Shown here: piece by piece, positions 6,289 through 62,540 of the stretch | Layout: each line of letters starts with the position of its first letter | Numbering within the stretch: the stretch's first letter is position 1 | Assembly (NCBI GenBank): GCA_964349365.1 | Contig: CAYGFY010000004.1 | Location: 24,115 to 88,114 of the forward strand | Source of the DNA: an uncultured Bacteroidales bacterium | Lineage (GTDB): Bacteria; Bacteroidota; Bacteroidia; Bacteroidales; UBA7960 | Direction: 5' to 3' | Length of the DNA stretch: 64,000 bases | Notes under the pieces: generated by a model | Told to the model about the DNA's origin: nothing | Databases searched by the model: none | Seen by the model: the letters and a program-made list of their open reading frames with translations, nothing else | Position numbers and translations under genes: made by a program

Positions 6289-6336
6289 TGAAGCAAATTA
6301 GGCCAAAGCCGACAAATCAGGAAATTGCAACAAAAA

Positions 6337-23222: not shown

Positions 23223-23251
23223 GGCAATGGTGTCATTTAAATGAAAAAATC

Positions 23252-32885: not shown

Positions 32886-33095
32886 AGTGCCGGTATTCGG
32901 AATAGTTTACCAATTAATAATTAACGCCGCTTATTAAAGAATTAAAACGCAGATAAAACTAATTTTTGAAGCCATTAATCTAAAGCAGTAATCTGATATG
33001 ATTAGTTTGGTGCCAAGTGCCGTATCAGTTTGATTCGCGTAAAACCATGTCAAAAATTAACCGGAGAGAAAATTTAACTATCAAAATCACGAAAA

Positions 33096-44860: not shown

Positions 44861-44904
44861 GGCAAAATAAAAGCCGTCAAGGAATTAGATTCCTCGACGG
44901 CTTT
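44861..44904 (-). terminator. Rho-independent terminator ending the roughly 17 kb PUL operon
   Basis: On the minus strand: AAAGCCGTCGAGGAAT-cta-ATTCCTTGACGGCTTT, a 16-bp stem with one G:U pair, followed by TATTTTG. It begins about 20 nt after the stop at 44925. Confidence 0.7.
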
Positions 44905-44924
44905 GCCGAATTTTGAAGAAAGAG

Positions 44925-47429
44925 CTACTTTTGTACTTGAACCTTTTGTGTAACGACTCCATTTTCAGAGTAAACTTTTACAAAGTAAACCCCTGCCCGT
45001 AGTGAATTGATGCTAAAAATATGACTGTTGCCATTTACTTCGGCGGAATAAACAACTTGTCCTAACATGTCAATCAGACTAACTTTTTTGATGTTTGTTC
45101 CCGAGGTAATATTGATGTTTGATCTTGCAGGATTTGGGAATACCCTAACTTGTGCATTTTCAATTATATCAACATTGGTAGGGCTGCCGATATGACCGAA
45201 CCAATCGTTGACGGTCATATTACCGGTAACCGTAACCTGCCTATTTGGAGACCCCGGCCACTCACCGCTGTCGAAAGAGGGAGCATCAAAGTATTTGTAA
45301 CTGTATGTTCCTACCGGCAACATCATTGTTTTGGTAAAAACAAAAACATTATCAGTGGCCGACATTAATTGTGAGGCAGGAATGCTACCGGGAGCGGCCC
45401 AATCAACACCAGGGAAGTTGCCGGTAATGAAAATTGTATGGTTATCGCCGGGGGTAAAACCGCCAGGCCTATGTCTCATGTCAACATTGAAGACCACGGT
45501 CCTGGGTGTTGGCTGAAGCGTAACGACTACGGTTCGGTTTGAGCCAAAAACTGTTGCTGTACCAGTACTCGAAACGAATCCTTCCCTTGATACTACAAAT
45601 TGGTGTGTACCATCCGGAACACTTATAACATAATTACCTGGTTCGTGTGGTTTGCCGTTCAAGGTAATCATTGCACCCTCAACGGTATTGTTAAGATGGT
45701 CTTTGATATCAAAGGTTAGGTTGTAAAAAGCAATTACCGGGAGTGTAATTTGTTTGCTTAGAAGCCAGTTGTTAGGTGTGAGAGTATTTTTCCCGGGAGC
45801 TCCCGACCTGCTAAGCATATAGCCGTTTTGGGCTGTTGCACCAAAGAACCAGTTGTGGCCATCGTTGTCGAAATCCACGGCAAGCCAACCTTCGGGCAAC
45901 CATTGAGGATTGATTGGGTCAGTAACCCCTGCATCGAAGTTCTCGTCAATAACCGTTGCTGGTAGGTCCAAGGTTTTGGAAGCCACAATCCTAACATCGT
46001 CAATAACGATACGATCCATACCCGTTACATCGTGGTGACGGAAAGCCACCCTTGCATCCTTGGAATGGTGCCATGCCAGGTTAGCCGAGCGACTTTGGAA
46101 AACCATTGAACCAATAGTTGAAGGTAGTGTTTCTTCAAAAACCATCTCGTAATTATTAGGGTTGAATGGAACCCCGCTTGGAGCGTCTTTCTTGCTTACC
46201 CAAACGCTGTATTTTTCAAGGCGTTGGTCGGCCGTGGCGGCGGTGGTAGCTACTCTCCAGGTTAGAGTAACTGCATTGTAAATGGTTGGCTCAACGTTAA
46301 CGAAAACGTTAGAGTTAACAACCTTAGCAAGGCCCTTGACGGGGAAATAATTTGGCGCGGTAACCTCGTAGTTGTAAAATCCGGGCGGAACCGTGAAGAA
46401 ATAGTTTCCGGGAGTGCCAGCAACATCGTTAAGCTTGATGGTGGCGTTGGTTACTAATTCGCCGCCAACATCAAAGACGGTGAATGCCAGGGTATGTTGA
46501 GCATCGGCACCGCCGGTCATGACAACAGGTATGGTTAAGTTTTCCTTATCAACAGTAAATGTCCCGGAAGCGGTAACAAATCCACTTTTCTTTACGAAAT
46601 AGGTGTATGATCCAGGAAATAAGTTGAGATTGTAAGATCCGGCGGCATACTGTTTACCATTAATGTTAATTGAGGCGTCGGCAACCGCGTTGCCTCCCGC
46701 GTCTTGAACCGTGAAATTTACGCCAAATGGGTCAACTATTCTCAAGTCATCGAAATAGACGGCACCCGAAACACCCTGAGATTGCCCGCTCCAGGTGAGT
46801 TGGAAACTATCGAAAACGATATAATCGTTACTCCAAACGCCATTGCCGTTTACCCAACCGACTACTGGATCTTCGGAAAGCCTCCAGGTTATGCGCCTCC
46901 AGCCAGTCCAGTCAATAGTAAACCACTGCGATCCTTCAAGCTGACCTCCAGCCACATCCGTGCGTTTCTCGCGTGTCATAAATCGGAACCTGTTGCCGGA
47001 ACCGTCTCCATGCACGAATACTTCGATGGCCTGATGTGGTAAAAAACGCCGGGCAACTGCATCTGACACAGGACCGGCTAAAGTGGATTCAGGCAAATGT
47101 TGTCTAATTAGGTGACTACCTGCACCCAAAGGCCTGTTGGCATCCCACTTGTAGCCAAGCTTCATCGACATGGTACTCCCTGAGGCCGGGTTGAAGATTT
47201 CGGTATCAGAAACCCTGTACGTGACCACGTTTCCTCCCTCTTCAAGTATAATTCCCGTGGTGCTTCCACTAGCATTAGGAGTCCACCACAATGACACCGC
47301 GGTAGGAGGCTCAAAGTTGTCAATGTTGCGGAAATTAGGATTTTCTTGTGAAAAAGCAGTGCCAAAGGCCGATACCAAGAACAGAATTGCCATACATGGC
47401 ACAGTGGTAAATTTAGTTTTCATAAGCAT
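44925..47429 (-). CDS. T9SS-secreted multidomain protein. It contains an N-terminal uncharacterised jelly-roll-like domain, three CarboxypepD_reg-like repeats, a choice-of-anchor-J domain, a CBM-like domain and a Por C-terminal sorting domain.
   Basis: Signal peptide MLMKTKFTTVPCMAILFLVSAFGTAFSQ. Choice-of-anchor-J pattern DENFDAGV ... PEGWLAVDFDNDGHNWFF. T9SS CTD VRVFPNPARSNINITSG ... LRAGVYFVKVYSENGVVTQKVQVQK. Confidence 0.8.
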   Translation of the reverse strand: MLMKTKFTTVPCMAILFLVSAFGTAFSQENPNFRNIDNFEPPTAVSLWWTPNASGSTTGIILEEGGNVVTYRVSDTEIFNPASGSTMSMKLGYKWDANRPLGAGSHLIRQHLPESTLAGPVSDAVARRFLPHQAIEVFVHGDGSGNRFRFMTREKRTDVAGGQLEGSQWFTIDWTGWRRITWRLSEDPVVGWVNGNGVWSNDYIVFDSFQLTWSGQSQGVSGAVYFDDLRIVDPFGVNFTVQDAGGNAVADASININGKQYAAGSYNLNLFPGSYTYFVKKSGFVTASGTFTVDKENLTIPVVMTGGADAQHTLAFTVFDVGGELVTNATIKLNDVAGTPGNYFFTVPPGFYNYEVTAPNYFPVKGLAKVVNSNVFVNVEPTIYNAVTLTWRVATTAATADQRLEKYSVWVSKKDAPSGVPFNPNNYEMVFEETLPSTIGSMVFQSRSANLAWHHSKDARVAFRHHDVTGMDRIVIDDVRIVASKTLDLPATVIDENFDAGVTDPINPQWLPEGWLAVDFDNDGHNWFFGATAQNGYMLSRSGAPGKNTLTPNNWLLSKQITLPVIAFYNLTFDIKDHLNNTVEGAMITLNGKPHEPGNYVISVPDGTHQFVVSREGFVSSTGTATVFGSNRTVVVTLQPTPRTVVFNVDMRHRPGGFTPGDNHTIFITGNFPGVDWAAPGSIPASQLMSATDNVFVFTKTMMLPVGTYSYKYFDAPSFDSGEWPGSPNRQVTVTGNMTVNDWFGHIGSPTNVDIIENAQVRVFPNPARSNINITSGTNIKKVSLIDMLGQVVYSAEVNGNSHIFSINSLRAGVYFVKVYSENGVVTQKVQVQK

Positions 47430-47464
47430 TTGATTAATTGGTTTAAAAGAAAAAAAGGTCTTGT

Positions 47465-49981
47465 TTAATTTAAAACTTGCAAGAACGATTTAATTTGACC
47501 GCTACTTGACATTACCCTTACTATGTAGGTGCCTCTTTGCAAGTCAGAAACATCAATTGCAGCAAGCTCTTTTAAAGGTTCTGTTTGAGTAATTAATTTT
47601 CCATCAATCGAAAAAACCTGAACAAGCAATATTGTTTCATCCGAAGCAATGTTTATTCGTGTCGATGTGGGGTTTGGATAAACATTAAGCCTGGCAATTC
47701 GAAAATCTTGGGTGGAAACTGGAGTTTGCCTCACGAATCTCAAATCATCAAAGTAAAGAGATCCCTTTAGTTGGGAGGTTGCGGTCTTGCGCAAGTGAAA
47801 GCCATCAATGAAAAAGTTAGATCCCTCGAGGACTCCGTTACCGTTAACCCATCCGAAAATAGGATCGTTGGTCAAGTCCCAAGAGATTAATTTCCAACCT
47901 TTCCATGCAACTGGTATCCAGGCATTAGCCTCGAGGTGATTTGAGCCATCTCGAATCATCAGCCGCACCTCGTTGCCAGTTCCATCGCCAAAAAGGAAGA
48001 ACTGCAACACATCGGTCCTGTTGAACCGTATGGTGTTTTGGCTTGCACCCGGGGGCAAGTGCTGCCTTATGTACGGGGTGCCTGCAAAGCCTTCCTGCCA
48101 CTCGTAATCAAGGCGCATGCTTCCGGTACTACCCGTGGTATGGTTAACTATTGAAGAATCGTGAAAACGACCTGTATTTCCGGTAACAATACCAAGGGTT
48201 TGGCCTGCCTGTTGCGGGGCCCACCAATTTACAATTCCACCGTTAAAATTATCAATTACGGTAAGATTGGTAACTACCTGGGCGGAAATTGAAAAGTTGA
48301 ACGCAAACGGAACGGTTTGATTGTTAAAAATATCGGTCAACCCCCCAGCTATACTGACCGTGTACGAAAGAGACGGGTTCAGGTCTTGCGTTGGGAAAAA
48401 GTGAATTAGCGTGTTTTTGCCCAAATATGTATGCTGAACAACCCCAGGCACTATATTATTGGTACCTACTGGAGTCAATACAACAGAATTTTGAGTTATC
48501 GAAGACCCAACAATTCGTTCATCGTAAAGCAACCTGATTATTGGCCTCAAAATATTTGCGGGTTGATTTTGCGCCGGAAAATGCGATAACAACACCGGAG
48601 GGGCGGTATCTTCGGCCGATGTGGCAATACTTATCGTGTAATTTCCACCTTCGGTGCCATTGGCATCGCCATCAAGAAATTGCCCGGTTATAAGGCCCTT
48701 GGCTACGCCGCCGTCAATAGAAAGAATATAATTGGTTAAGTATTGAAGCTGGTTTGTGTTAATTACCAGGTTGAAATCGTTGGTCCAGGAATAACTCAAC
48801 TGGGCAGAGGGTTGAATTGAAATGGCGGCCTCTACCGTTGGCCTGTCCATTTTTCGACTAAACCTAATATTAACATCGGTGCCGGGTACAAAATCAGTTA
48901 GGTTTCCCGAAGTTTGAACCTGTTCAACCACCGGAGGCACGATGGATGTTAGTGCAACGTCGAGGAAACTCAGGTTTTGGGTTATGGGGCCAGTAACGTT
49001 CGAAGCTATGGTAAGGCTGCTTTGGAGGGATTGATGATTAGGCGAGGTAAATGTAACCTCATAAGTTTGCAGGGGGGTAAGATTTTCGAAAAAATAAAAA
49101 CCGTTGCCCAGCAAGTTGGGATCATTGGTGTAATTACTGAAAAGGGATTCAAAAGTATCGGTGATGTAGGTTTGGCCATTAATCTGAACGGTAATGCCAT
49201 TCAAAGGTTTGTTGGTTTCCACATCGGTAATAAACCCGAGGGCAACCCCGATGGCAGGTTTTTGAACCTGCCGGTGTTGAAGAATAGACCAAAACGCGGC
49301 GAGGGCCTCCAGCTTTTTCCACTCGGCGTTCATATTCCTCTGATTTTGAGTGGGGTTGGTATGAAACCCGCCCTCGCTAAGCAACGAAGCCATATTCGTT
49401 TGCCTGTTTACCCAAAGCCAAGGAAACTGGTTGGTGTGGTGATTAGGAGTGGGATCGTAAAAAACTCTGTCAGCAAAATTTCCAGAAGTGGGAATTCTCA
49501 TTGCCCCGGGCAGATCAACGTTAAGAATTGTTCCAAACGCGGCACCTCCATTTGGGGTTTTCTCAACTATCACGCCGTTGTTTCTCCAGCCCCCGTAAAG
49601 CATCAACGTTCTGTTGGCTTCGGGTGGCCCGGCATCGCTGTGAATGGAGTAGTAGAAATCAACGGCAAGGGTATTGGCCTGATCGGTTCTTCCGCCAAGG
49701 GAAACATTGTCGAAATCAGTCTCGCGAGCAACGTAAACGGCCTGTATGTCAGTCATTTCGAGTAAATACTGCCTCAAGGCCAAACCAATCCGCAATACCT
49801 TTTCGGCTTCTGAATATCCGTGTATGCCCATATTTTCCTTCATGGAGTGTCCTTGGTCTATGTACAACTTCCAGTTGTTTAAGCCTGTAACTTGCGCCTG
49901 CAGGTTGCCGGAAAAAGCAATAATCGCAATTCCAAAAACCATGAATAGGGCCTCGTGCGCAATAATTCTTGTTGATTTCAT
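47465..49981 (-). CDS. T9SS-secreted N-acetylmuramoyl-L-alanine amidase (Amidase_3) with CarboxypepD_reg-like, two SbsA-Ig-like, one uncharacterised and one Por CTD domain
   Basis: Amidase_3 pattern with Zn ligands: YIDQGHS ... GYSEAEKVLRIGLALRQYL ... RTDQANTLAVDFYYSIHSDAG. T9SS CTD LNVYPNPTSTRINIASD ... LQRGTYIVRVMSSSGQIKSFLQVLN. Confidence 0.85.
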   Translation of the reverse strand: MKSTRIIAHEALFMVFGIAIIAFSGNLQAQVTGLNNWKLYIDQGHSMKENMGIHGYSEAEKVLRIGLALRQYLLEMTDIQAVYVARETDFDNVSLGGRTDQANTLAVDFYYSIHSDAGPPEANRTLMLYGGWRNNGVIVEKTPNGGAAFGTILNVDLPGAMRIPTSGNFADRVFYDPTPNHHTNQFPWLWVNRQTNMASLLSEGGFHTNPTQNQRNMNAEWKKLEALAAFWSILQHRQVQKPAIGVALGFITDVETNKPLNGITVQINGQTYITDTFESLFSNYTNDPNLLGNGFYFFENLTPLQTYEVTFTSPNHQSLQSSLTIASNVTGPITQNLSFLDVALTSIVPPVVEQVQTSGNLTDFVPGTDVNIRFSRKMDRPTVEAAISIQPSAQLSYSWTNDFNLVINTNQLQYLTNYILSIDGGVAKGLITGQFLDGDANGTEGGNYTISIATSAEDTAPPVLLSHFPAQNQPANILRPIIRLLYDERIVGSSITQNSVVLTPVGTNNIVPGVVQHTYLGKNTLIHFFPTQDLNPSLSYTVSIAGGLTDIFNNQTVPFAFNFSISAQVVTNLTVIDNFNGGIVNWWAPQQAGQTLGIVTGNTGRFHDSSIVNHTTGSTGSMRLDYEWQEGFAGTPYIRQHLPPGASQNTIRFNRTDVLQFFLFGDGTGNEVRLMIRDGSNHLEANAWIPVAWKGWKLISWDLTNDPIFGWVNGNGVLEGSNFFIDGFHLRKTATSQLKGSLYFDDLRFVRQTPVSTQDFRIARLNVYPNPTSTRINIASDETILLVQVFSIDGKLITQTEPLKELAAIDVSDLQRGTYIVRVMSSSGQIKSFLQVLN

Positions 49982-49987
49982 TTCGGC

Positions 49988-50944
49988 TTAGTTTTCAAGG
50001 TTAACAATTAGTATGTCTCCATTGGTATGGTTCTCGAACGCAATTTTCTTGCCGTCGGGCGAAACAGAAGGACTTAAGGCAATAATGCCATGAACATCAA
50101 CCAAGGAGGTTTCTAACCCCGTGGCGAGGCAAACAGCGTAGATGGCGCCGGAAGTGAAGATATGACCGTCATCGGTGGTTTTCATCACCGCGAGGTAATC
50201 TTCTGTTGGAAACCAACTTGGCCTTTCGCCATAACCAAGATGCCGAAGTCCCGAACCATCGGAGTTTATCAAGTACAACCCCTTTGCGGCCACCTGAAAG
50301 GCTATTTTCTTGCCTGATGGCGAAAGGGTAACATTGAAAATTGTCCTTGATCCAAAATCAGCAACTTCTTGCTTTTGGTTTTTTTCGGGGTAGGCAACAA
50401 ACATTTTCCCATCTAAAGAATAAATAACCGGTTGGATTTCAAGATGTGAATTCCAACCCTTGTTTCCATCGGCAATAGTCTTCAATTCCAAAACTTCGTT
50501 TACTACCACCAAAACACCATTGCCGTTGTTGACCCACATGGGTAGCGTTTTTATTCCACGTGTTGGCTCAACGAGGGTTATGACTTTCGAATTGGCAACG
50601 TTGATGGTTTTTATTGATTGAAGCCTTCTATTGTCAACATATTCCGACGAGCGCACCAGAATATCCATTGAGTTTGGCGACCATGAAAAACCAAAACCAA
50701 TACCCTGATTTTCAGAAATCTGCCTTGGCTCTTTTTCGTCAATTGTCAAAATCCAAATACCACCGTACCCTTCGGGCGAAAAGGCAATATGCCTTCCATC
50801 GGGCGACCATTTGGGGTTAACCCAACCCTGACCTGAAGATGCAACCAGCAAGCTAGGCTCATCAACTGCAATAGCCTGGGATTGCAGGATGTTTATGGCA
50901 AATGAAATGGTTGCCAAACATAAAAAAATTTTCAGGGCTTTCAT
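49988..50944 (-). CDS. Secreted PD40/TolB-like beta-propeller protein
   Basis: A signal peptide is followed by repeated WSPDG/SPSGKKIAF/SPDGKKIAF PD40 motifs. Confidence 0.8.
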   Translation of the reverse strand: MKALKIFLCLATISFAINILQSQAIAVDEPSLLVASSGQGWVNPKWSPDGRHIAFSPEGYGGIWILTIDEKEPRQISENQGIGFGFSWSPNSMDILVRSSEYVDNRRLQSIKTINVANSKVITLVEPTRGIKTLPMWVNNGNGVLVVVNEVLELKTIADGNKGWNSHLEIQPVIYSLDGKMFVAYPEKNQKQEVADFGSRTIFNVTLSPSGKKIAFQVAAKGLYLINSDGSGLRHLGYGERPSWFPTEDYLAVMKTTDDGHIFTSGAIYAVCLATGLETSLVDVHGIIALSPSVSPDGKKIAFENHTNGDILIVNLEN

Positions 50945-50948
50945 TGCA

Positions 50949-53396: not shown

Positions 53397-53462
53397 CGGT
53401 TTTGTTTTAAAACCAAGGAGGTTTTTGCGGTTTGGCAACCCCCCCCTTGGCAGTTTGTCTTT

Positions 53463-55064
53463 TTATCTTTTAACATGGTCAATCCCTATGCCGAAGGGAA
53501 CAATTCCGGTGACCAAAAATTCTGGCGGTTTGGAACCATCCATTTTCCAGCGCCTAACTCCCGACAAGGAACCATTGCCAACTATTTGACCTGCAGTGTT
53601 TATATCGCTCTGATGCCTGAACGGGTAGTAAATGTAGCCACCCTCGGCATCAACCACTATCGATGTAACGTAGGTTCTTTCTCCTTCGCCTCCCTGCATT
53701 GAAAAGTTATCCAGGGGGTCAATCAGACGAATGTTGGTTCCGTCAATATTCGAGACATAAAGTCCGGCACTTGCCAATCCGCCCGAAGCCCTGTTTACAG
53801 CGAAGTAAATCTGATTATTCTGGGTGTCTACTTCGAAGCAACGTATTTGGATTTGGAAAAGACCTTCAATTCTAGCAATAAAGTTACCGTCCATTGCAAA
53901 CCGATACAGGCCGCGACCAGTGCCGTGCTTGCTGTACCAAATTTCGTTGTTGACAATGCGTACCCCTCCATCTGTCCAGCCAAAAGTAGAAGGCACGCCT
54001 AGGTGCGTGGCCATAACAGCCGGGACGTCCCAGACAAATGGTGCCGGATACTCTCCATTTACTTCTCGATGGTCAATTTTTCTAACACCCTGAAACCTAT
54101 TCAACCAATAAACGGTTCCATCTGGCCCAACGGTAGAAATAAAGGGGTCAGCAACATAGTTGTGTTCCATAACACTGGGTTGGGTAATGGTGTACCTATT
54201 CCCTCCTGCCAGATTGGTTGTAAAAATGAATCCGTCAGGGGGTGTTTCGGCAGGAGCAAACCTTATGTGGTCGCCGGCCACAGAAACAATAAGACGATTT
54301 TGAAATACACTTACCGAAAGTGGATGCAACCCAACGTTGATGGGCAGTTGCTCAAGAGGTGCTATGGCACCAGAATAGAGCATCATCTTGTAAAGGCTTT
54401 GGTCAATAGCATTTGTGATAAACAGTGTTTTTGCTATCTCCGCCTGAACTATAACCTGCCTGGAAACATTCAAGATTTCCACCCCGTCAAATAATTGTAG
54501 TGTAACAGTATATGTACCTGGCAGGTTGTAGGTTGTTTGTGGCCTGGCAACGGTTGATGTTACGCCATTACCCAAGTTCCAGGAGTACGTTACCTGGTCT
54601 GAAAGCCCAGGGTACTTAAAAAACTCCACCCAAAAGGTTACCAAATCGCCATAAACAAGTCCTGTTGGATCCTGCATGATGACAGGAGTGGGTTTTGCAA
54701 CAGTAAAGTTTATGGTGTGAGAGGTTTCCTTACCATCGGCCATAATTTTTAGAGTAGCAACGTAATTGCCCGGAACAGGGTAAAAAACTCCCTCTGGCTG
54801 TATTCCGGTAAAGGTGTTTTCTTCGGTAGGCTGTCCATTTATAACGATAAAACCACCAGGAAAAGACCAATGGTAAGATTCGGCGTTTTTTGTCGCATTT
54901 ATAACCCTAATGGTAGTAGGTGCCGATAGGTTATCAACGTTTTGGATCGTGAAAAAGGTTACCACTTCGCCCCATATCTTTTCCTTTTCCTTCTCGCATG
55001 ATGTAAGTAATGCCCCAATCAAGAATGTGGCAATTAATGCAAATGCAAATCTTTTGTTTTTCAT
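53463..55064 (-). CDS. Surface lipoprotein with two PKD-like domains and a YWTD-like beta-propeller (candidate surface glycan-binding protein)
   Basis: Lipobox LIGALLTSC. PKD-like segments YHWSFPGG and YSWNLGNGVTS ... PGTYTVTLQLFDG. Propeller-like repeats VYWLNRF, IWYSKHG, IYFAVNR and IYYPFRH. Confidence 0.7.
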   Translation of the reverse strand: MKNKRFAFALIATFLIGALLTSCEKEKEKIWGEVVTFFTIQNVDNLSAPTTIRVINATKNAESYHWSFPGGFIVINGQPTEENTFTGIQPEGVFYPVPGNYVATLKIMADGKETSHTINFTVAKPTPVIMQDPTGLVYGDLVTFWVEFFKYPGLSDQVTYSWNLGNGVTSTVARPQTTYNLPGTYTVTLQLFDGVEILNVSRQVIVQAEIAKTLFITNAIDQSLYKMMLYSGAIAPLEQLPINVGLHPLSVSVFQNRLIVSVAGDHIRFAPAETPPDGFIFTTNLAGGNRYTITQPSVMEHNYVADPFISTVGPDGTVYWLNRFQGVRKIDHREVNGEYPAPFVWDVPAVMATHLGVPSTFGWTDGGVRIVNNEIWYSKHGTGRGLYRFAMDGNFIARIEGLFQIQIRCFEVDTQNNQIYFAVNRASGGLASAGLYVSNIDGTNIRLIDPLDNFSMQGGEGERTYVTSIVVDAEGGYIYYPFRHQSDINTAGQIVGNGSLSGVRRWKMDGSKPPEFLVTGIVPFGIGIDHVKR

Positions 55065-55076
55065 AATGTATTAGAT

Positions 55077-55859
55077 TTACTTGATTATCCTAAAATTTCT
55101 TGATGAAGTTCTGCTCGTGGTTGCAACCGTGGCCACCGACTCGATGGTGCCGCGGGTATTGTCATCAACGGTTGCCTCTATCAAATGCTGAATGAGTAGT
55201 GCCCGGGTAAGATTCTCGCGCACGTAGTTAAAACCAAACTCGGTAAGGTTGCCTGTAAAGTTGCCGTTGGCATCAAATTCAAAACATGTAATTGGAGCCG
55301 ATGGCCATAGTTGCCTAACATCCGCACGGTTCATTTGCAAACTAATTTTGTGAACAATGGCGGAAAAATCGGAATTCGGCATGGCATTAATAAGAGCAGG
55401 CCCCTCCTGCACCAACAAGCTAAAACCGGTTGCCACCACAAACGGGCAAACAATTACGTATGCGTTTTCGGCGGTTTGATAGTAAAGATTTAAAGATTCT
55501 CCGGCTTGAGGGTAGCTTCGAATAAGTGTTCTTGGAATAAACAACGAATCGGTTCTATGAGTAACCTGAAAAAGCTTCGGGGCGCCGCTAACGGTAATTT
55601 GCATTCTAACAGAGTAATTCTTTACCGAGAATCCCCTGTAAAAAAATGAAATATTGTTCATGTCGTCGTTGGTTGCCCAAGCCACCGTGCGTAGCATCAG
55701 TGTATCGTTAACCTTGGCGTCGGGCATTTGAGCAAGAAGGTTAAATGGAGCTAAATTGCCGGTAAGAATACCCTGATCACCGAGGGGGTCATTTTTTTCG
55801 CATGACAAAACCATAGTGGCGGCAACCGCTAAAAGCATTAGGTTTTTAATTACTTTCAT
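55077..55859 (-). CDS. Hypothetical surface lipoprotein in the SusE/F position
   Basis: Lipobox MLLAVAATMVLSC. No recognisable domain. The gene lies directly downstream of susD. Confidence 0.65.
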   Translation of the reverse strand: MKVIKNLMLLAVAATMVLSCEKNDPLGDQGILTGNLAPFNLLAQMPDAKVNDTLMLRTVAWATNDDMNNISFFYRGFSVKNYSVRMQITVSGAPKLFQVTHRTDSLFIPRTLIRSYPQAGESLNLYYQTAENAYVIVCPFVVATGFSLLVQEGPALINAMPNSDFSAIVHKISLQMNRADVRQLWPSAPITCFEFDANGNFTGNLTEFGFNYVRENLTRALLIQHLIEATVDDNTRGTIESVATVATTSRTSSRNFRIIK

Positions 55860-55880
55860 CTTTATGTACTTTTGGTGTTT

Positions 55881-57362
55881 TTACAGTGTTGAATTAATAA
55901 CCCACCAGAATGGGGTGACAACCCAATTAGGATTTCTGGCCCCAAGGCGCTCCATTTCATTTGGATTGTAGATGTACTCCGTTTGCGGGTCGTATGGAAG
56001 CCTCTGGAGCCAAGCACCATTATAAGCAGGAAGGGCGTTAACCGGGTATTCGAGTCCGGGGTAGGCCCTGGTGGAGTACTTGTACCTTCGCATATCAACC
56101 CAGGTTTCGGGTTGCAAGTAAAGTGCAATGTATTTTTGCAACATAATGTCACTTATTTTGAGAGCGGCTGCACTTTGGGCAACTGCCGGAGAAGCCAAGT
56201 AGGCATTCATTTCATCGGCAGTAACGCCAAGCCTTTGGAAGTTTGCTCTAATGCCATTTATGTATGCATTGTATGCCCTGGTTGGGTTCGGCAAGTAAAA
56301 CGCCGCCTCGGCCTCTATAAACCACAACTCTTCGGTTGTAATGAATACTATCGGAGAATTGTCTCTAGTCCAGTAACCGTTATAAAGATTTGCAAAATCA
56401 TCGATGCTCAAGGCACCCCTACCTGCGCTTGCGGGAACTCCTAAGTATCTACCGTTTCTGCCAGGAGTGGTAAGTTTGAAAAGTCGGGGGTCGAGCTGGC
56501 CAGAAAGGTTCATGGCATTCATGAAAAAAGTGGTGCTCACAGAAGTGTTGAGAGAGTTCCTGATATCGGTAAAATCCCACTGTGGGCTTGGGCGCGAAGG
56601 GCCCCACATGTTAATGTGCCAGTCAGTTGACGGGGCGTCCCTATAGGCGTAAAGCGGCTCCATCCATGATGCTTTTGCAAGGTCAATTGCATTTAAAACT
56701 TGTTGGTAGCCTCCCGATTTAAAGTTTGCCGTATTTAGTAGCATCCTTGCCCTGATGGCGTGGGCAAAGGCTCTCCAATGATTAATGTTGCCGCCAAAAA
56801 TATGATCTTCGGCACTGGTCATTGCCCTATTTTGAGGAGTTGACAAGTTTAGCGCTTCAATACCTTCGGCAAGCATTCTGGCAACCTCGGCATAAACCAC
56901 TTCCTGAGTATCGTAGGTGGGGTTGTAGATACCAGTAAAGGCCTGCAACACTGGCATGTCGCCAAAAATATCGGTTGAGGTCAGGTAAGAGAAGGCCATC
57001 ATTATTTTTCCAACACCAACGTAGTTTTGCGAGCCTTCTTCTTGAGCAAAAAGTATCATCTTGTTGGCATTGCCGGCAACATCGAAATAGTGACGACGCC
57101 AGGGGTTAATGCGCAGGATGTTACGATAATCCCACCTGTCCTTGACGGCGTTAGTGCCAAATTCGGTAGTAACGTATTGAGTAACGTAGGCGCTGGCCTC
57201 GGCATGAGAGTACAGCGAGTATGCCATGTTGCCCAACACTGCAGGTAGCATAAAGTTGGGAGTAGTCTTTTGGTCACTGTCAAGCGGTTCGTTTACGTCC
57301 AAGAACTTGGAGCACCCAAACAAAGCCACAAATACTGCTAAGTATATAATATTCTTTTTCAT
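55881..57362 (-). CDS. susD: SusD/RagB-family nutrient-binding outer-membrane lipoprotein
   Basis: Lipobox VALFGCSKF. It is 493 aa and TPR-like helical in composition. It starts 5 nt after the SusC-like gene, which is the classical susC-susD pairing. Confidence 0.88.
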   Translation of the reverse strand: MKKNIIYLAVFVALFGCSKFLDVNEPLDSDQKTTPNFMLPAVLGNMAYSLYSHAEASAYVTQYVTTEFGTNAVKDRWDYRNILRINPWRRHYFDVAGNANKMILFAQEEGSQNYVGVGKIMMAFSYLTSTDIFGDMPVLQAFTGIYNPTYDTQEVVYAEVARMLAEGIEALNLSTPQNRAMTSAEDHIFGGNINHWRAFAHAIRARMLLNTANFKSGGYQQVLNAIDLAKASWMEPLYAYRDAPSTDWHINMWGPSRPSPQWDFTDIRNSLNTSVSTTFFMNAMNLSGQLDPRLFKLTTPGRNGRYLGVPASAGRGALSIDDFANLYNGYWTRDNSPIVFITTEELWFIEAEAAFYLPNPTRAYNAYINGIRANFQRLGVTADEMNAYLASPAVAQSAAALKISDIMLQKYIALYLQPETWVDMRRYKYSTRAYPGLEYPVNALPAYNGAWLQRLPYDPQTEYIYNPNEMERLGARNPNWVVTPFWWVINSTL

Positions 57363-57367
57363 GACGA

Positions 57368-60300
57368 TTAAAATTTAAGGTTAATACCAAGTGTAACGGC
57401 TCTTCTTATCGGCACCTGGAAAAAATCGACGCCCATGGTTCCTGCTCCGCTTGCACCGCCACCAGGACCAGCATTATTTACTTCCGGATCGCCTCCTGAA
57501 TAGTTGGTAAACAAAAGGGAATTCTGCAAGTTAAGGTTAATGCTTGCCTCTTTGAGCCTTATGCCCGACAACCATCCCTTGGGTAAGTTATAAGTTAAGT
57601 TGACCGTTCTAAGCCTTATCCAGAAAACCTCCTCCACGAAGTTTGTGCCAGCAAGGTTGTAGAAGTTGTTAAAGAAAACTTGGTCTATAAATATTGGTCT
57701 GGTATTTGGAACAAATGACCCGTCAGCTTGCTCTACAACCCCATCGAAAACGAATTCGCGGTTGCGATAATTTTCAAGCATTTTGTGACCACCATTTGAA
57801 AGGAGTGCTTGACTTGATGCGTTTAACAACTGGGCACCCATGGCTCCATCAATCAGGAATGAAATCTCGAAGTTTTTTATTCTAAGATTGTTGTTAAAGC
57901 CGTAATAGAACTTGGGCTCACGGTTGCCAATGTACCTTTTTCTTGTGTCAATTCTCGGGTATCCGTTTGCATCAACTATTACCTGCCCTTTATCATTGCG
58001 CAAGTAATCGGTTCCGACTATTCCGAAGAGAGCCTCTCCCAGCCAAGAACTGGCAATGGCTTGCGAGGAAACCTGCCCGAATGTTACCGGAAATTCCACC
58101 AAATCGCCGAACAGCTTGGTTAGACGCGACCTGTTTCCAAAACCGTTGAGCGAAAATTCCCAATCTAAGTCTTTTCTCCTAATAGGCTTTACGGAGAGCA
58201 ATATTTCTATTCCCTTGTTCTCAACCGAGCCCGAGTTTACCGCTTGCAGAATCGCACCAGTTACCGGTGTAACCCTGGGCTGGATAATTTGGTCGTTTGA
58301 TATCCTGCTGTAGTAGGTGAAGTCAACACTAAAGAGACCTTCCCAAAACCTAAGGTCAACTCCCAACTCTAACTCTTGGGTAATTTCTGGCCTAAGGTTC
58401 GGATTACCTGCAAATGCATCGTTTCTCCAGCCTTCACCAATGCCGAAAAATTGGGATAGTGTTTGGGTTAACCTGTGCGGAGGTGCATCCTTACCCACTT
58501 GCGAGTAACTGGCTCTTACCTTACCAAAAGAAAGCACCTTCTGGTTCGAGCCAAGTAATTCGTTAAAAATAAAGGCACCACTAACTGATGGTGAGAAGAA
58601 AGAGCGATTTTTCAAGGGCAAGGTTGACGACCAGTCGTTTCTGGCCGAAAAACCTAGAACCAACATGCGATTGTAGTCAACGGTAACGTCGCCAAAAACA
58701 CCAACAATCCTCCTTCTGGAGGTTGATTGGGTATTTCGCACGTTAATAAGGTTATTAATTGAGTGCAGGGTTGGATTCCTGAACCTCTCACCCTCAACGA
58801 AAGTATTCCTTGCAAAATCGGATTGAGCGTTGTGTCCGGCAATTGCCGTTATCCGCAGTTTTTCGCTAAAAGGATAGTCGGCAGTGGCAAGGAAGGTAGA
58901 GGTAATCTTTTCGCTTTCGCGATTAAACTCGCTAATAGCTCCCTGAAAATTGGCCGAACCCGCGGAGCCGGGTTCGTGAACTGCCTTGTAATGCTGCTGG
59001 AAGTAGTCGCGGCCAGCGGTGTAGTTGAATGTTAGCCATTCGGTTGCCTGGAAAACAGCATTTATTGAATTAATATTGCGGCTAACGTTATCGTTGCGAA
59101 CTTGATGGTAAGCACTCCACATTGGGTTGTCTGGAACGTTGACCAAGTTGCCGTCAATTGGTATCCAAACATTTCGTTCGCTTCCATTTTCGTTTAAGTA
59201 TTGGGCCATATTGTCCCAACGAGGCCACCTGTAAACATTTTGCAACCACCCACCACTAGCGCTGAAAATTCCCATCTTGTTGTTGGTTTTAATTATGTTG
59301 GAAGTGGTGGTTACGGTAATTTTGGGGTTAAGTTTCACGGAGGCGTTGAGCATTGCCGAGTTTCTGCCGAAAAAAGTATTTGGCACAATTCCCTCCTCGC
59401 CGAGTGTAGAAATTGACAAGAAATAGGTTAGGCTTCCGGCACCACCACGCACGTTGGCATCAACCTTGTTGGCCAAACCTGTTTGGAAAAAGTTGCCAAG
59501 GTTGTCGTAAACCTTATCGCTTCTGAGTAAAGGAGGCCCCCAGTGAGTTAAGGTGCGAGGGTTGAACAAGCCTGCAGCACCTGTCGAGTAGGTATTTTGC
59601 AAGCCATGGAGTTTACCTACCTGCGATAGGGTGGTGGAAGTTGCAACACCTGCACTTACAACACCTTCCTTGCCCCTCTTTGTTGTGATGATAATGGCTC
59701 CATTGGCTGCATCAATTCCATAAAGGGCAGCAGCCGCGGCACCCTTCAAAATAGAGATAGACTCAATGTCGTTGGGGTTAATGTCGGCGGCACGGTTTGT
59801 TGTGCCACGCATTGTGGCGTTTGAAATGGGTATCCCGTCAATTACGAACAGGGGCTGGTTGTCGCCATCAACTGAGGTTGCACCCCTGAGGATAATCTCT
59901 GATGATGACCCGGGTGCGCCGCCGGTTGATGTAATTTGGACTCCCGAAATCCGCCCTTGAAGCGAGTTAACAACGTTTTCTTGCCTGGAGGCCATAATAC
60001 TTTCGGAACCAACGCTCTGTACGTTGTAGGTCAACGTGCGTTCTTCCCTTCTGATACCCAGTGCAGTAATAACAACTTGCTCGAGCATGGTTGCCAAGGG
60101 TTGGAGCGCAACATTAATAACCGCTTGAGTGCCGACCAGAATCTCGGCAGTCTCCATCCCAACGAAACGGAACTGCAGTACATCGGCGGCAGAGGCAGTA
60201 ATGGAGTACGACCCGTCAATGTCGGTAATTGTACCTGTGGTGGTACCTTTTATTACAACTGTTGCCCCGATAATGGTTGTTCCGTCGGAGGCATCGGTTA

Positions 60301-60385
60301 CCGTTCCGGTAACTAGCCTCTGCTGACCAAGGGCATTGGTGGCAAGGATTGCCATAAAGGCCAGAATTACAAAGGTTTTCTTCAT
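57368..60385 (-). CDS. susC: SusC/RagA-family TonB-dependent outer-membrane transporter
   Basis: A signal peptide is followed by a CarboxypepD_reg N-domain (VTGTVTDASDGTTIIGATVVIKGTTTGTITDIDGSYSI), a plug domain (PLFVIDGIP, SISILKGAAAAALYG) and a C-terminal beta-barrel ending in ..LGINLKF. There is no STN domain. Confidence 0.93.
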   Translation of the reverse strand: MKKTFVILAFMAILATNALGQQRLVTGTVTDASDGTTIIGATVVIKGTTTGTITDIDGSYSITASAADVLQFRFVGMETAEILVGTQAVINVALQPLATMLEQVVITALGIRREERTLTYNVQSVGSESIMASRQENVVNSLQGRISGVQITSTGGAPGSSSEIILRGATSVDGDNQPLFVIDGIPISNATMRGTTNRAADINPNDIESISILKGAAAAALYGIDAANGAIIITTKRGKEGVVSAGVATSTTLSQVGKLHGLQNTYSTGAAGLFNPRTLTHWGPPLLRSDKVYDNLGNFFQTGLANKVDANVRGGAGSLTYFLSISTLGEEGIVPNTFFGRNSAMLNASVKLNPKITVTTTSNIIKTNNKMGIFSASGGWLQNVYRWPRWDNMAQYLNENGSERNVWIPIDGNLVNVPDNPMWSAYHQVRNDNVSRNINSINAVFQATEWLTFNYTAGRDYFQQHYKAVHEPGSAGSANFQGAISEFNRESEKITSTFLATADYPFSEKLRITAIAGHNAQSDFARNTFVEGERFRNPTLHSINNLINVRNTQSTSRRRIVGVFGDVTVDYNRMLVLGFSARNDWSSTLPLKNRSFFSPSVSGAFIFNELLGSNQKVLSFGKVRASYSQVGKDAPPHRLTQTLSQFFGIGEGWRNDAFAGNPNLRPEITQELELGVDLRFWEGLFSVDFTYYSRISNDQIIQPRVTPVTGAILQAVNSGSVENKGIEILLSVKPIRRKDLDWEFSLNGFGNRSRLTKLFGDLVEFPVTFGQVSSQAIASSWLGEALFGIVGTDYLRNDKGQVIVDANGYPRIDTRKRYIGNREPKFYYGFNNNLRIKNFEISFLIDGAMGAQLLNASSQALLSNGGHKMLENYRNREFVFDGVVEQADGSFVPNTRPIFIDQVFFNNFYNLAGTNFVEEVFWIRLRTVNLTYNLPKGWLSGIRLKEASINLNLQNSLLFTNYSGGDPEVNNAGPGGGASGAGTMGVDFFQVPIRRAVTLGINLKF

Positions 60386-60539
60386 AATGATTAGTTTTGG
60401 TGTTTATGATTGATTAGAAAGTTGAGTTTTTTATAGTGATTATCATTAAATTATGCCGCTAATTTAGGTTTGCAAGAAAAATGTGGTTAACTGACCATTT
60501 CCGGGAAAAAAATTGTTCAAAAATACTAAAAAAACTCTT

Positions 60540-61367
60540 TCAATCTCTGGGCTTGCAAAAGGTGTCGAGTACTTTTTTGACAGACCCTTGCTGCAAAAGA
60601 AGTTCCCGGGCTTTTACCTCCTCCATTCCCAACTCTTCCATTATCATTCGAGTGCCTCTTTTTACCAACTTTTGGTTTGTTAGCTGCATGTTTACCATTT
60701 TGTTTCCCTTAACCCTTCCCAATTTTATCATTATGGTGGTGGTAATCATATTAAGCACCATCTTTTGAGCCGTTCCAGCTTTTAGCCTCGTGCTTCCGGT
60801 TACGAATTCTGGCCCAACAACGGCCTCGATTGGATATTCAGCTTCCATTGCCACTTGAGAGTAAGGGTTACAGGTAATGCAACCCGTGAGAATACCATTT
60901 TGCCGGGCAATCTTCAAACCTCCTACTACGTAAGGAGTGCTTCCCGATGCGGCTATCCCAATTACAGTGTCGAGTTCGTCGATACCCCTTTCCTTTAATT
61001 CCTCCCAAGCTTTTTCGGGGTCGTCTTCTGCAGCCTCCACGGCCTTTCGCAGTGCTCTGTCGCCTCCGGCAATTAATCCAACAACCAGCCCTTCGGGGGC
61101 ACCAAAAGTGGGTGGAAGCTCCGAAGCATCGAGCACTCCCAGGCGGCCACTAGTACCGGCACCAAGGTAGAAAATCCTGCCACCCAATTTCATGCGCTTC
61201 AGTATCTCAACTATTAGTGCCTCTACTTGTGGCAAGGCTTTTTGCACGGCAACGTGTACCTTGGCATCCTCCTGGTTTATGGCGGTTATTAGTTCAGAAA
61301 CCGACATCTTGTCGAGGTTCTCGAACTGCGAGGGCGACTCGGTAATGTTTAGTTCAAATTTCTCCAT
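60540..61367 (-). CDS. murQ: N-acetylmuramic acid 6-phosphate etherase
   Basis: TE..S..ENLDKMSVSELITAINQEDAKVHVAV ... GGRIFYLGAGTSGRLGVLDASELPPTFG ... GIAASGSTPYV ... GPEFVTGSTRLKAGTAQKMVLNMITT ... MVNMQLTNQKL shows near-canonical MurQ/SIS motifs. Confidence 0.93.
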   Translation of the reverse strand: MEKFELNITESPSQFENLDKMSVSELITAINQEDAKVHVAVQKALPQVEALIVEILKRMKLGGRIFYLGAGTSGRLGVLDASELPPTFGAPEGLVVGLIAGGDRALRKAVEAAEDDPEKAWEELKERGIDELDTVIGIAASGSTPYVVGGLKIARQNGILTGCITCNPYSQVAMEAEYPIEAVVGPEFVTGSTRLKAGTAQKMVLNMITTTIMIKLGRVKGNKMVNMQLTNQKLVKRGTRMIMEELGMEEVKARELLLQQGSVKKVLDTFCKPRD

Positions 61368-61382
61368 TTGGTTTTGCCAAAG

Positions 61383-62240
61383 TTATATTGGTGGACAGTA
61401 CTGCAAAACGTGGTATTCTAACAAGCCCTCGATTGGGTCTTTTATTACCCTCCCAATTTCATAACCACATTCATTGGCGGCAAGTTGCAAAACATCATTA
61501 AAATGCCAAGCAATGCTACCTGTAAAGTGTATGGTTTTAATTTCGGTTTCTTCGGAATATTGGCGTATGTTACGCTCAAAAAACTCTTTGAATGATGCCC
61601 TTACCAGGTTGTGCAAGGGTTTCTCGTTAATGTTTTTTGACAAAAAAACCGTAAAGGTTGCCAAGTATCTGTTTGGAAAGGGCTTTCGGTAAACATTATC
61701 CATAATTTCGGCAGCAGTTTGGCCGCAAAAATCCGAAAAGCGATCAATAAGTTCTTTTGGAAGTTGGTTTTTCAAAACATCTGACACAAGTTTGCGACCC
61801 ATAACAGCACCACTCCCTTCATCGCCGAGTATAAAGCCCAATGGCGAAACGTTTTTTATAATATCTTTTCCGTCATACAGGCAGGAGTTTGAGCCTGTAC
61901 CAAGTATGGCAGCCATGCCTTTTGAATGCAGGCAAAGCGACCGGGCTGCACCAAGCAAATCGCTTGCCACCAAAATGTTTCCTGTTGCAAAAAACTTCCG
62001 TAGTGCATCCTCCACTATTTTGTTCTTTTGGGCATTAGCGCAACCAGCACCATAAAAAGCAACTTCCTCAATTTTGTCCCCGGCAAGATCGAACTCGGAA
62101 GTTAAAGTTTTGAGAATCTCGTCGGTGGTTTGAAAAAAAGGATTTATCCCTTGGGTAGTACAAGTTTGCAAACTTCCCGAAACTTTATCGGCAAGAACCC
62201 ATCTGGTTTTGGTTGATCCACTATCTGCTATAAGAATCAT
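61383..62240 (-). CDS. BadF/BadG/BcrA/BcrD-type sugar kinase (GlcNAc/MurNAc kinase, MurK-like)
   Basis: The N-terminal phosphate-1 motif is ILIADSGSTKTRW, followed by ILGTGSNS and LGDEGSG motifs. The gene is 285 aa and ends 15 nt upstream of the murQ start codon. Confidence 0.8.
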   Translation of the reverse strand: MILIADSGSTKTRWVLADKVSGSLQTCTTQGINPFFQTTDEILKTLTSEFDLAGDKIEEVAFYGAGCANAQKNKIVEDALRKFFATGNILVASDLLGAARSLCLHSKGMAAILGTGSNSCLYDGKDIIKNVSPLGFILGDEGSGAVMGRKLVSDVLKNQLPKELIDRFSDFCGQTAAEIMDNVYRKPFPNRYLATFTVFLSKNINEKPLHNLVRASFKEFFERNIRQYSEETEIKTIHFTGSIAWHFNDVLQLAANECGYEIGRVIKDPIEGLLEYHVLQYCPPI

Positions 62241-62390
62241 GTTTTAAAAAAAGTAGAGCTTTGCTAATAAAAACCTAACTGATAAAGACTTACAAGTTAA
62301 ATCAAAAATGACGTCAAATTCTCCAAGCCTAATGCAAGACCAGGCCATGAAGATATAAAAAAACTACTTTGCTCTTAACATTTTCTTAAA

Positions 62391-62420
62391 ATTTTTTAAT
62401 AATTTTTAATAATTTTTAAA
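62391..62420. repeat. Three tandem 10-bp A/T-tract units in the divergent promoter region
   Basis: attttttaat / aatttttaat / aatttttaaa is read directly. The helical-phase periodicity suggests intrinsic DNA bending. Confidence 0.6.
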
Positions 62421-62540
62421 AACTCCGACGGGCGGGCAGTTAAACGAAACAACTAAACAAATTAACAGCCACACATTTCAACTTTCAACTTATGGCATTA
62501 GGCTGCCAACTTTTTACTAATTTCGTAAAAATTTTGAAAA

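Follow-up and report, generated by a model that had tools for sequence, protein, structure and literature searches.

We have analyzed a 64-kb stretch of DNA (the window), part of a 107.8-kb metagenomic contig (CAYGFY010000004.1) from an uncultured Bacteroidales bacterium, and describe a cluster of ten genes within it that joins a SusC/SusD outer-membrane uptake pair to genes for N-acetylmuramic acid (MurNAc) catabolism and to predicted secreted proteins with cell wall-directed domains. The ten open reading frames (ORFs) do not overlap, all lie on the minus strand, and run from position 62240 down to 44925, with intergenic gaps, in 5' to 3' gene order, of 15, 154, 5, 21, 12, 24, 4, 6, and 35 nt. 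A first-pass annotation, made from the sequence alone, had described ten same-strand genes with gaps of 4 to about 150 nt that end at a strong terminator (44861 to 44904); the layout was reproduced here with gaps of 4 to 154 nt, and the terminator was the top-ranked terminator-like site in the 19.5 kb scanned. The other 24 sites from that scan were weak, and none lies inside any intergenic gap of the cluster. Upstream, ThiF/MoeA/MoaA genes on the opposite strand diverge from murK; downstream lie genes for a PALP enzyme, a patatin-like lipase, CysS, and an RND efflux system. Because it is flanked in this way by housekeeping genes on both sides, the operon is sharply bounded. The PALP gene just past the terminator (43848 to 44825) was considered as a member of the locus and rejected, since it adjoins the locus in no relative. 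The features of the locus are listed in Table 1.

TABLE 1 Genes and transcription signals of the ten-gene locus, in the direction of transcription
Feature	Coordinates	Strand	Evidence
Divergent intergenic region, probable promoter and leader	62241..62540	minus	300 nt between murK and the ThiF gene
MurK-type MurNAc kinase (predicted), 285 aa, cytoplasmic	61383..62240	minus	BcrAD_BadFG, 34.9 bits (cutoff, 31.5)
MurQ, MurNAc-6-phosphate etherase (predicted), 275 aa, cytoplasmic	60540..61367	minus	TIGR00274, NF003915, SIS domain
SusC-type TonB-dependent outer-membrane transporter, 1005 aa	57368..60385	minus	TIGR04056, TIGR04057, CarboxypepD_reg, Plug, barrel
SusD-type surface lipoprotein, 493 aa, Cys17	55881..57362	minus	SusD-like_2, 156 bits; SusD-like, 96 bits
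L, lipoprotein of an undescribed family, 260 aa, Cys20	55077..55859	minus	Lipoprotein cysteine; AlphaFold model
P, lipoprotein with two PKD/Ig domains and a six-bladed YWTD-like beta-propeller, 533 aa, Cys23	53463..55064	minus	PKD, 47.7 bits; AlphaFold
G, secreted GHL10 enzyme (predicted) with a T9SS C-terminal domain, 829 aa	50949..53438	minus	GHL10, 188 bits; Por_Secre_tail; TIGR04183, 33.9 bits
T, PD40/TolB-like beta-propeller, 318 aa	49988..50944	minus	PD40, 50.5 bits; weak TolB similarity
A, secreted MurNAc-L-Ala amidase (predicted), 838 aa	47465..49981	minus	Amidase_3, two Big_5, CBM-like region, T9SS C-terminal domain
J, T9SS-secreted modular protein (predicted)	44925..47429	minus	Choice-of-anchor J/Cleaved_Adhesin, PEGA, CarboxypepD_reg, CBM20-like region, C-terminal domain
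Intrinsic terminator closing the operon	44861..44904	minus	16-pair stem (44904-44870), 7 G-C pairs, 3-nt loop, then TATTTTG
T9SS, type IX secretion system; CBM, carbohydrate-binding module.

Domains were called with Pfam and NCBIfam profiles, at scores above the curated cutoffs, and every family named in the first-pass annotation was recovered in this way. An adjacent, same-strand susC-susD pair, here 5 nt apart, is one criterion by which polysaccharide utilization loci (PULs) are recognized, and glycan-degrading enzymes in the same gene string, here G (GHL10) and A (Amidase_3), are a second; as judged from its gene content, the locus belongs to the PULs, which are an established kind of system. 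SusC scores 626 bits on TIGR04056 (cutoff, 368) and also carries the SusC signature TIGR04057, and the Pfam scan detected no STN signaling domain in it. No close solved structure was found for the SusD clade, for which the best profile match was the uncharacterized lipoprotein 4q69 (E value, 1e-29).

The first gene of the cluster encodes a BadF-type kinase, which the first-pass annotation had called MurK-like. It matches the Tannerella forsythia MurK structure (8oqw) with an E value of 3.3e-71 over residues 1 to 277 and the MurK paralogue K1058 (8oqk) with an E value of 1.4e-67. It retains S132-P133-L134, equivalent to the S133-P134-L135 patch of MurK, as well as D94, N118, and D140 (the catalytic Asp and the sugar-binding Asn/Asp). 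In MurK, this patch accommodates the lactyl ether of MurNAc, whereas K1058 has R-A-G instead (PMC10465942). The structure matches and the MurNAc-specific patch identify the window kinase, at the sequence level, as a MurK orthologue of the MurNAc type. The assignment of the second gene to murQ also stood: the product scores 312.3 bits on the TIGR00274 equivalog model (cutoff, 302) over residues 11 to 263 of 275 and 368.7 bits on NF003915. Neither MurK nor MurQ has a signal peptide at its N terminus.

Two of the downstream genes encode enzymes from families with wall-cleaving members. The closest solved relative of G is the catalytic domain of Clostridioides difficile Cwp19 (5oq2; E value, 8.6e-68), and G is 33% identical to Escherichia coli DigH (E value, 2e-58), which itself scores 453 bits on GHL10. 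G keeps all of the proposed active-site residues of Cwp19: W45, Q85, W138, R143, D205, D206, Y207, S271, Q322, and Y324 correspond to W36, Q77, W127, R132, D195, D196, Y197, S250, Q295, and Y297, respectively. About 400 residues in the middle of G form an uncharacterized region. Cwp19 has been demonstrated experimentally to be a peptidoglycan lytic transglycosylase and causes autolysis (PMC6016235), and DigH breaks down the peptide-free, or "denuded," glycans that amidases leave (PMC12288456). The GHL10 glycosidase-like protein of the first-pass annotation can thus be linked by homology to two enzymes that cleave peptidoglycan. The locus has MurK rather than an anhydro-MurNAc kinase, which suggests that G is hydrolytic, like DigH, and not lytic, like Cwp19.

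A scores 49.2 bits on Amidase_3 (gathering threshold, 27). Across 25 orthologues, its residues H45, E58, H114, and E203 are invariant; in 5emi and 4rn7, two solved Amidase_3 domains, they line up with the GH, E, SIH, and E-x-G motifs, which we take, from general knowledge of the Amidase_3 family, to be the zinc ligands and the catalytic Glu. G, A, and J all have hydrophobic N termini and tails that score above the TIGR04183 cutoff of 23 (A, 42.2 bits; J, 55.2 bits; for G, see Table 1). With a signal peptide and a C-terminal sorting domain, they have the features of type A cargo of the type IX secretion system (T9SS), and their export is predicted.

The remaining proteins are less readily assigned. 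L has no family match in Pfam or NCBIfam. Its AlphaFold model (pLDDT, 88.3) is a beta-sandwich with a helical insert, for which a fold search against the PDB returned nothing at an E value of ≤0.001; the best matches, to arrestin-like sandwiches (E value, 2.2e-3; TM score, 0.27), led us to drop any transfer of function from the fold. Only 33 clusters matched when 1.84 billion representative proteins were searched with a profile, and on this basis L is classed as a small, locus-specific family. An L homologue follows susD in the loci of Bacteroidales metagenome-assembled genomes (MAGs) and Saprospiraceae and in many loci of Sphingobacteriales and Pontibacter, and the loci of Cytophagales and Paludibacteraceae encode a protein of the size of L in the same position. 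The model of P (pLDDT, 88.7) matches propellers of the LDLR/LRP6 type and, at lower rank, the cobalamin-binding Bacteroides thetaiotaomicron surface lipoprotein BT1954 (8bmy and 8bmz). P is kept beside L in nearly all loci with a SusD orthologue, and L and P are probably accessory surface binding proteins.

T has a signal peptide and neither a lipobox nor a C-terminal sorting domain and is therefore probably periplasmic; it is conserved in the architecture of the Bacteroidales MAGs. J, which the first-pass annotation had placed at the end of the operon as a choice-of-anchor-J protein with a T9SS tail, does have these domains (choice_anchor_J, 40.4 bits; cutoff, 30); however, it is not a conserved member of the locus. 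Matches in relatives are limited to its C-terminal 14 to 34%, conservation does not extend to the rest of the protein, and profile searches found no catalytic domain in it, only adhesin-like and CBM-like modules and the sorting domain. J was therefore dropped as a core component. Overall, the compartments predicted for the products fit a surface-to-cytoplasm scheme, with MurK and MurQ lacking signal peptides, SusD, L, and P being lipoproteins, G, A, and J bearing T9SS tails, and T having a plain signal peptide.

The ten genes most likely form one transcript that would start upstream of murK. This arrangement is favored because a conserved motif block lies upstream of murK in relatives and no conserved promoter motif is found in the murQ-susC gap, where 13 of 15 relatives have no TAnnTTTG. 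The block, GTTTTTAAAAA..ATTATTAATG..TTTTTACATTTGCA, which includes the Bacteroidetes -7 motif TAnnTTTG (TACATTTG), occurs upstream of murK in 14 of 16 relatives. The window has only the 5' half of this conserved block of about 45 nt, at -183; the TACATTTG element, which comes next in relatives, is absent. The half-block may be a regulator site, an UP-like element, or a decayed promoter. Across the window, TAnnTTTG occurs 70 times against 65 expected, which is chance level, and a scan for the sigma-70 consensus, which gave 40 sites against 29.5 expected, was set aside with none convincingly placed. On the minus strand at about 62334 to 62423, upstream of murK, the window reads GTTTTTAAAAATTATTAAAAATTATTAAAAAATTTT, the counterpart of this half-block, in which the 10-nt unit AAAAATTATT is repeated in tandem.

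The closest genome relatives of the window are uncultured Bacteroidales MAGs, and SusD orthologues with 40 to 75% identity occur in at least 73 GTDB species. An alignment of these orthologues yielded 80 loci from GTDB species genomes, taken with 10-kb flanks and scored by tblastn with proteins of the window and of its relatives; the following counts refer to the 70 loci of at least 14 kb, among which related species are nonindependent samples. GHL10 is encoded in 45 of these loci, MurQ in 41, glycoside hydrolase family 18 (GH18) in 34, MurK in 24, an Amidase_3 homologue in 22, and NamZ in 16. The chance of finding MurQ by coincidence in a 20-kb stretch is probably well under 1%, a rough, uncomputed estimate that treats MurQ as probably single copy. 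The first-pass annotation had regarded a lack of synteny in relatives as evidence against its proposal; synteny proved to be conserved, with at least one peptidoglycan marker (MurQ, MurK, GHL10, NamZ, or Amidase_3) in 57 of the 70 loci. Rather than being a one-off, the locus is one architecture of a phylum-wide family.

Several architectures can be distinguished. The order murK-murQ-susC-susD-L-P-GHL10-PD40-amidase is kept in 17 to 19 of 19 loci from Bacteroidales MAGs. Marinoscillum has MFS-GH3-GHL10-susC-susD-L-P-GHL10-murK-murQ, and Reichenbachiella and Cyclobacteriaceae have GHL10-propeller-Amidase_3 (with a T9SS tail), followed after other genes by susC-susD-L-P-GHL10-nagB-murK-murQ. In Pedobacter alpinus, the order is GHL10 (tail)-X (tail)-susC-susD-L-P-GH18-GHL10-murQ-SSF permease-FAD/Fe-S oxidase, where the oxidase is a possible D-lactate dehydrogenase that could oxidize the D-lactate from MurQ. 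Pontibacter has SLT...susC-susD-L-P-GH18-GHL10...murQ-SSF, Saprospiraceae have genes for a sigma factor of the extracytoplasmic function (ECF) type and FecR ahead of susC-susD-L-P-GHL10 (tail), and in many Sphingobacteriales namZ adjoins susC. Rearranged linkage of this SusCD family with MurQ, GHL10, NamZ, or an amidase is seen in Cytophagales, Sphingobacteriales, Saprospiraceae, and Paludibacteraceae, and it persists through at least five gene orders. Despite the nonindependence of the species, the fact that the linkage has outlasted at least five rearrangements is an argument that it is under selection. The relatives also supply steps that have no counterpart in the window, namely, NamZ, GH3, GH18, AmpG-like and MurT-like permeases, NagB, a D-lactate-dehydrogenase-like enzyme, and regulators of the DeoR or ECF-sigma/FecR type.

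Some relatives carry additional genes beside the locus. In one MAG (locus L002), namZ (3338 to 4567, plus strand) lies directly before murK, and in another (locus L007), a single case, a SpoIID-domain protein is encoded beside murK (37 to 1371, minus strand). The P. alpinus locus (L086) encodes, at 5187 to 6821 between the T9SS-tailed GHL10 gene and susC, a 544-aa protein with a T9SS tail and no other recognizable domains. Upstream of murK, most of the Bacteroidales MAG relatives have a divergent gene pair (at about 0 to 5 kb, minus strand) for a protein of about 1,025 aa (Golvesin_C, fn3, and a subthreshold Amidase_3 match) and a family 2 glycosyltransferase (GT2) of about 490 aa, in the position where the window has its molybdopterin genes. 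The pair was seen in loci L004, L005, L006, L008, L009, L013, L014, L017, L019, L024, and L030; in L003, which is cut by the locus end, only the large protein is present. The T. forsythia salvage cluster also includes two glycosyltransferases, to which no role is assigned.

Taken together, these data make it probable that the locus is a PUL for the glycan backbone of exogenous peptidoglycan, derived from dead or neighboring bacteria. Its four enzymes (MurK, MurQ, Amidase_3, and GHL10) belong to families with characterized members that act on peptidoglycan or MurNAc, the catalytic or specificity residues are intact in the kinase, the amidase, and G, and MurQ passes its equivalog model. The roles of MurK and MurQ in MurNAc use by T. 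forsythia have been described (PMC10465942; 10.1101/2021.12.02.470905). The first-pass annotation had likewise proposed that the operon breaks down exogenous murein, imports it through SusCD, and feeds MurK and MurQ, and the families, residues, and synteny reported here support that proposal as far as sequence data allow; all of the checks suggested there that can be made computationally favored it.

It can be envisioned that the T9SS would export A and G to the cell surface or the medium, where A would strip the stem peptides from MurNAc, thereby breaking the cross-links and leaving denuded glycan strands, which G, as a relative of the denuded-glycan hydrolase DigH, would cut into oligosaccharides. 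SusD, L, and P would capture the resulting (GlcNAc-MurNAc)n fragments (GlcNAc being N-acetylglucosamine), and SusC would import them with TonB energy. Periplasmic exo-enzymes and an inner-membrane permease encoded elsewhere in the genome would then release and import MurNAc and GlcNAc; candidate counterparts for this step in the loci of relatives are NamZ, GH3, GH18, a second GHL10, and SSF or MFS permeases. MurK would phosphorylate MurNAc, and MurQ would convert MurNAc-6-phosphate to GlcNAc-6-phosphate, which would enter central metabolism, and D-lactate. On balance, we lean toward a broader proposal as well: that these loci constitute a phylum-wide, so far uncharacterized class of SusCD systems that harvest foreign peptidoglycan glycan strands, built on T9SS-exported Amidase_3 and GHL10 enzymes here and on NamZ or GH18 in other lineages, with L and P as the first surface receptors for denuded murein glycans.

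Several observations weigh against a PUL for peptidoglycan. The pathway is incomplete as seen, with a single glycosidase in the window locus and neither an exo-muramidase, an exo-glucosaminidase, an inner-membrane permease, nor NagA/NagB, and tblastn of the 64 kb with the NamZ, GH18, GH3, SSF, MFS, NagB, and D-lactate-dehydrogenase-like proteins of relatives gave no matches. No regulator (hybrid two-component system, ECF sigma/anti-sigma, SusR, DeoR, or similar) was found between 43.8 and 64 kb. The first-pass annotation had already reported that neither a permease nor a regulator was visible, and this holds for the window; however, both are present in the versions of the locus carried by relatives. 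The promoter of the window operon itself was not located, there being no exact TAnnTTTG upstream of its murK. Were G lytic, like Cwp19, it would yield 1,6-anhydroMurNAc ends, which need AnmK and not MurK. The GHL10 family is not exclusively directed at peptidoglycan, since the Deinococcus radiodurans GHL10 protein DogH is reported to act on starch (PMC9967864).

Finally, 13 orthologous SusCD-L-P loci from Pedobacter and Chitinophagaceae carry GH18 and DeoR alone and lack any peptidoglycan marker within 10 kb, and on account of these loci the SusCD-L-P module may recognize a broader class of beta-1,4 N-acetylhexosamine glycans. Reduced versions of the form DeoR-susC-susD-L-P-GH18, with no MurQ, GHL10, or NamZ within 10 kb, are exemplified by loci L083, L032, L033, L035, L040, L054, L055, and L069, from Pedobacter and its relatives; in these genomes, either the genes for peptidoglycan use are located elsewhere or the module acts on another N-acetylhexosamine substrate.

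Among the alternatives, the one that survives best, although we regard it as unlikely, is that the locus is a weapon, with the T9SS-secreted amidase and G lysing competitors or prey and SusCD with MurK and MurQ mopping up the debris. This explanation overlaps with foraging and differs only in the function under selection. Saprospiraceae and Cytophagales are groups known for bacteriolytic lifestyles, and some of the relatives belong to them; moreover, the two wall-degrading enzymes carry export tails, the adhesin-like surface protein J accompanies both, and Cwp19 causes autolysis, as noted above. However, an amidase paired with a DigH-like enzyme that prefers denuded glycans would kill intact Gram-negative cells slowly, since their wall lies behind the outer membrane. 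No immunity gene is evident, and the tight, conserved coupling is to import and catabolism genes rather than to toxin and immunity genes.

Less likely still is the possibility that SusCD-L-P targets another glycan that contains N-acetylhexosamine, for example, chitin, chitooligosaccharides, N-glycans, or a polymer of the capsular or teichoic kind, and that the wall-recycling genes reflect a shared GlcNAc catabolism. GH18 is best known for chitinases and endo-beta-N-acetylglucosaminidases, and a SusCD pair followed by two lipoproteins and GH18 is a layout like that of N-glycan loci. GH18 comes directly after P in 34 of the 70 loci, and the 13 loci with GH18 and DeoR but no peptidoglycan marker point in the same direction. 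The window locus, however, has no GH18, and MurQ, MurK, NamZ, and Amidase_3 have no role in the use of chitin or N-glycans, yet peptidoglycan markers occur in most of the loci, as counted above. Furthermore, many of the loci that contain GH18 have NamZ, an exo-muramidase that acts on peptide-free peptidoglycan glycans (10.1101/2021.12.02.470905), beside susC.

It is very improbable that the locus serves self-recycling, that is, the recovery of the turnover products of the cell's own peptidoglycan and not of foreign material. MurK and MurQ are classical recycling enzymes, and an amidase followed by DigH is the septal wall-processing route of E. coli (PMC12288456), but the products of a cell's own peptidoglycan turnover are formed in the periplasm, where neither T9SS export nor an outer-membrane importer is needed, and the locus encodes three T9SS-tailed proteins and three lipoproteins of SusD-associated type whose surface exposure is predicted. 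Recapture of leaked fragments can be imagined; however, it would be mechanistically the same as foraging. An equally small chance is given to two unrelated neighbors, a murK-murQ recycling pair and a PUL of another specificity, which would be adjacent without any functional connection. The largest gap (154 nt) does separate murQ from susC and holds one TAnnTTTG match, but such matches are at chance level in the window and missing from this gap in most relatives, and the gap contains no terminator. Moreover, murK/murQ stay linked to this SusCD family in independent gene orders, with the pair located upstream in Bacteroidales and Paludibacteraceae and located downstream in Cytophagales and Sphingobacteriales, and the downstream genes of the window locus are themselves directed at peptidoglycan.

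A PUL for foreign peptidoglycan, the interpretation that we prefer, resembles known systems in its parts. The salvage cluster of T. forsythia (Tanf_08345-08385: ampG, lytB, namZ1, murT, murK, and murQ), a member of the same phylum, has orthologues of the MurK and MurQ of the window and shares the same logic, in which foreign peptidoglycan is broken down extracellularly or in the periplasm to MurNAc and disaccharides that pass to MurK and MurQ. No SusC/SusD, T9SS-tailed amidase, or GHL10 is listed for the cluster, which does include inner-membrane transporters and NamZ1, both lacking in the window. The Bacillus subtilis operon murQ-murR-murP-amiE-nagZ-namZ also couples a MurNAc-L-Ala amidase and glycosidases to MurQ for the use of wall material. 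It differs in belonging to a Gram-positive organism, in uptake by a phosphotransferase system (MurP) instead of MurK and a permease, and in having exo-acting enzymes only; it has neither an outer-membrane step nor secretion tails, and AmiE is named as a different enzyme.

In the septal pathway of E. coli, the same two families act in the same order as proposed here (the Amidase_3 enzymes AmiA/B/C, and then the GHL10 protein DigH and lytic transglycosylases); however, those enzymes work in the periplasm, on the septum of the cell itself, to separate the daughter cells, whereas the window enzymes have T9SS tails and are encoded in a locus for nutrient uptake. Enzymes secreted by the T9SS are also found in canonical Sus-like PULs, for example, the chitin utilization locus of Flavobacterium johnsoniae. 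Such loci are generally known to share with the window locus the SusC/SusD pair, surface lipoproteins, a T9SS-tailed endo-enzyme, and cytoplasmic sugar genes; they differ in substrate and enzyme families, and the window locus has no regulator. Cwp19 is the closest solved homologue of G, with conserved active-site residues and experimentally shown cleavage of peptidoglycan, but this S-layer-anchored autolysin carries CWB2 repeats, has lytic-transglycosylase chemistry, and acts on the wall of the cell that makes it, unlike the T9SS-tailed G.

The closest precedent by gene content is a PUL of the Urechidicola symbiont of Idas mussels (10.1101/2023.02.09.527947, Fig. 5), which has susCD pairs, murQ, nagB, ampG, an amidase, GH3, GH18, GH171, and a "family 10" enzyme. 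The authors of this 2023 preprint remark that most of the PUL genes concern murein metabolism, a remark made in a genome annotation without functional or comparative analysis (10.1101/2023.02.09.527947). This PUL comes from Flavobacteriaceae, has two SusCD pairs, an ampD-type amidase, dacA, and an epimerase, and is not presented as a member of a peptidoglycan PUL family; it is likened to the window locus by gene content. Across the 13,537 PULs of one survey, the families classically associated with peptidoglycan cleavage, GH23/24/25/73, were strongly underrepresented, and these enzymes were concluded to serve wall remodeling and not nutrition (PMC6499787). The window locus, which has Amidase_3 and GHL10, uses none of these families. 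The first-pass annotation knew of no characterized SusCD-type PUL for peptidoglycan; a full-text literature search, with subscription-only papers and PULDB outside its scope, likewise returned no paper that characterizes one, although the Urechidicola preprint had already remarked on a comparable PUL. The proposed substrate and enzyme set is not described as a characterized system in the literature searched.

Among the pools of bacterial necromass, peptidoglycan ranks with the largest, and in soils, sediments, oceans, and guts it is a major supplier of organic nitrogen and amino sugars. Bacteroidota are the main glycan degraders in those habitats, and no defined outer-membrane pathway for their uptake of peptidoglycan was found in the literature searched. 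If the proposal is true, Bacteroidota gain a defined molecular route from bacterial necromass to carbon and nitrogen, the widespread GHL10 family gains an ecological role, and the MurNAc scavenging studied in Tannerella gains a plausible outer-membrane route. It would also explain why such loci may have been overlooked, since the classical peptidoglycan glycoside hydrolase families are not involved, and the SusD clade, L, and P would become marker genes with which the turnover of necromass could be followed in metagenomes. Cultured carriers of the locus make the idea directly testable; they include Marinoscillum furvescens DSM 4134, Reichenbachiella agariperforans DSM 26134, P. alpinus, and Pontibacter and Portibacter species.

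Elsewhere in the window, about 22 kb from the locus, a minus-strand gene (22446 to 23255) encodes an NlpC/P60 peptidase whose SH3 domains are of the dipeptidyl-peptidase type, and it overlaps by 4 nt the end of a gene for an amidase-signature enzyme (23252 to 24919, minus strand). NlpC/P60 enzymes with such SH3 domains include gamma-D-Glu-diamino-acid endopeptidases, and this pair could process stem peptides freed by A. On the plus strand, an 807-aa ORF (16566 to 18989) with no Pfam match at an E value of ≤1e-4 lies between genes for a protein-L-isoaspartate methyltransferase and a SpoU methylase. The plus strand also carries, at 31563 to 34481 and directly before an RND efflux operon, a tandem pair of paralogous genes for Xaa-Pro aminopeptidases (AMP_N and Peptidase_M24; 440 and 461 aa).

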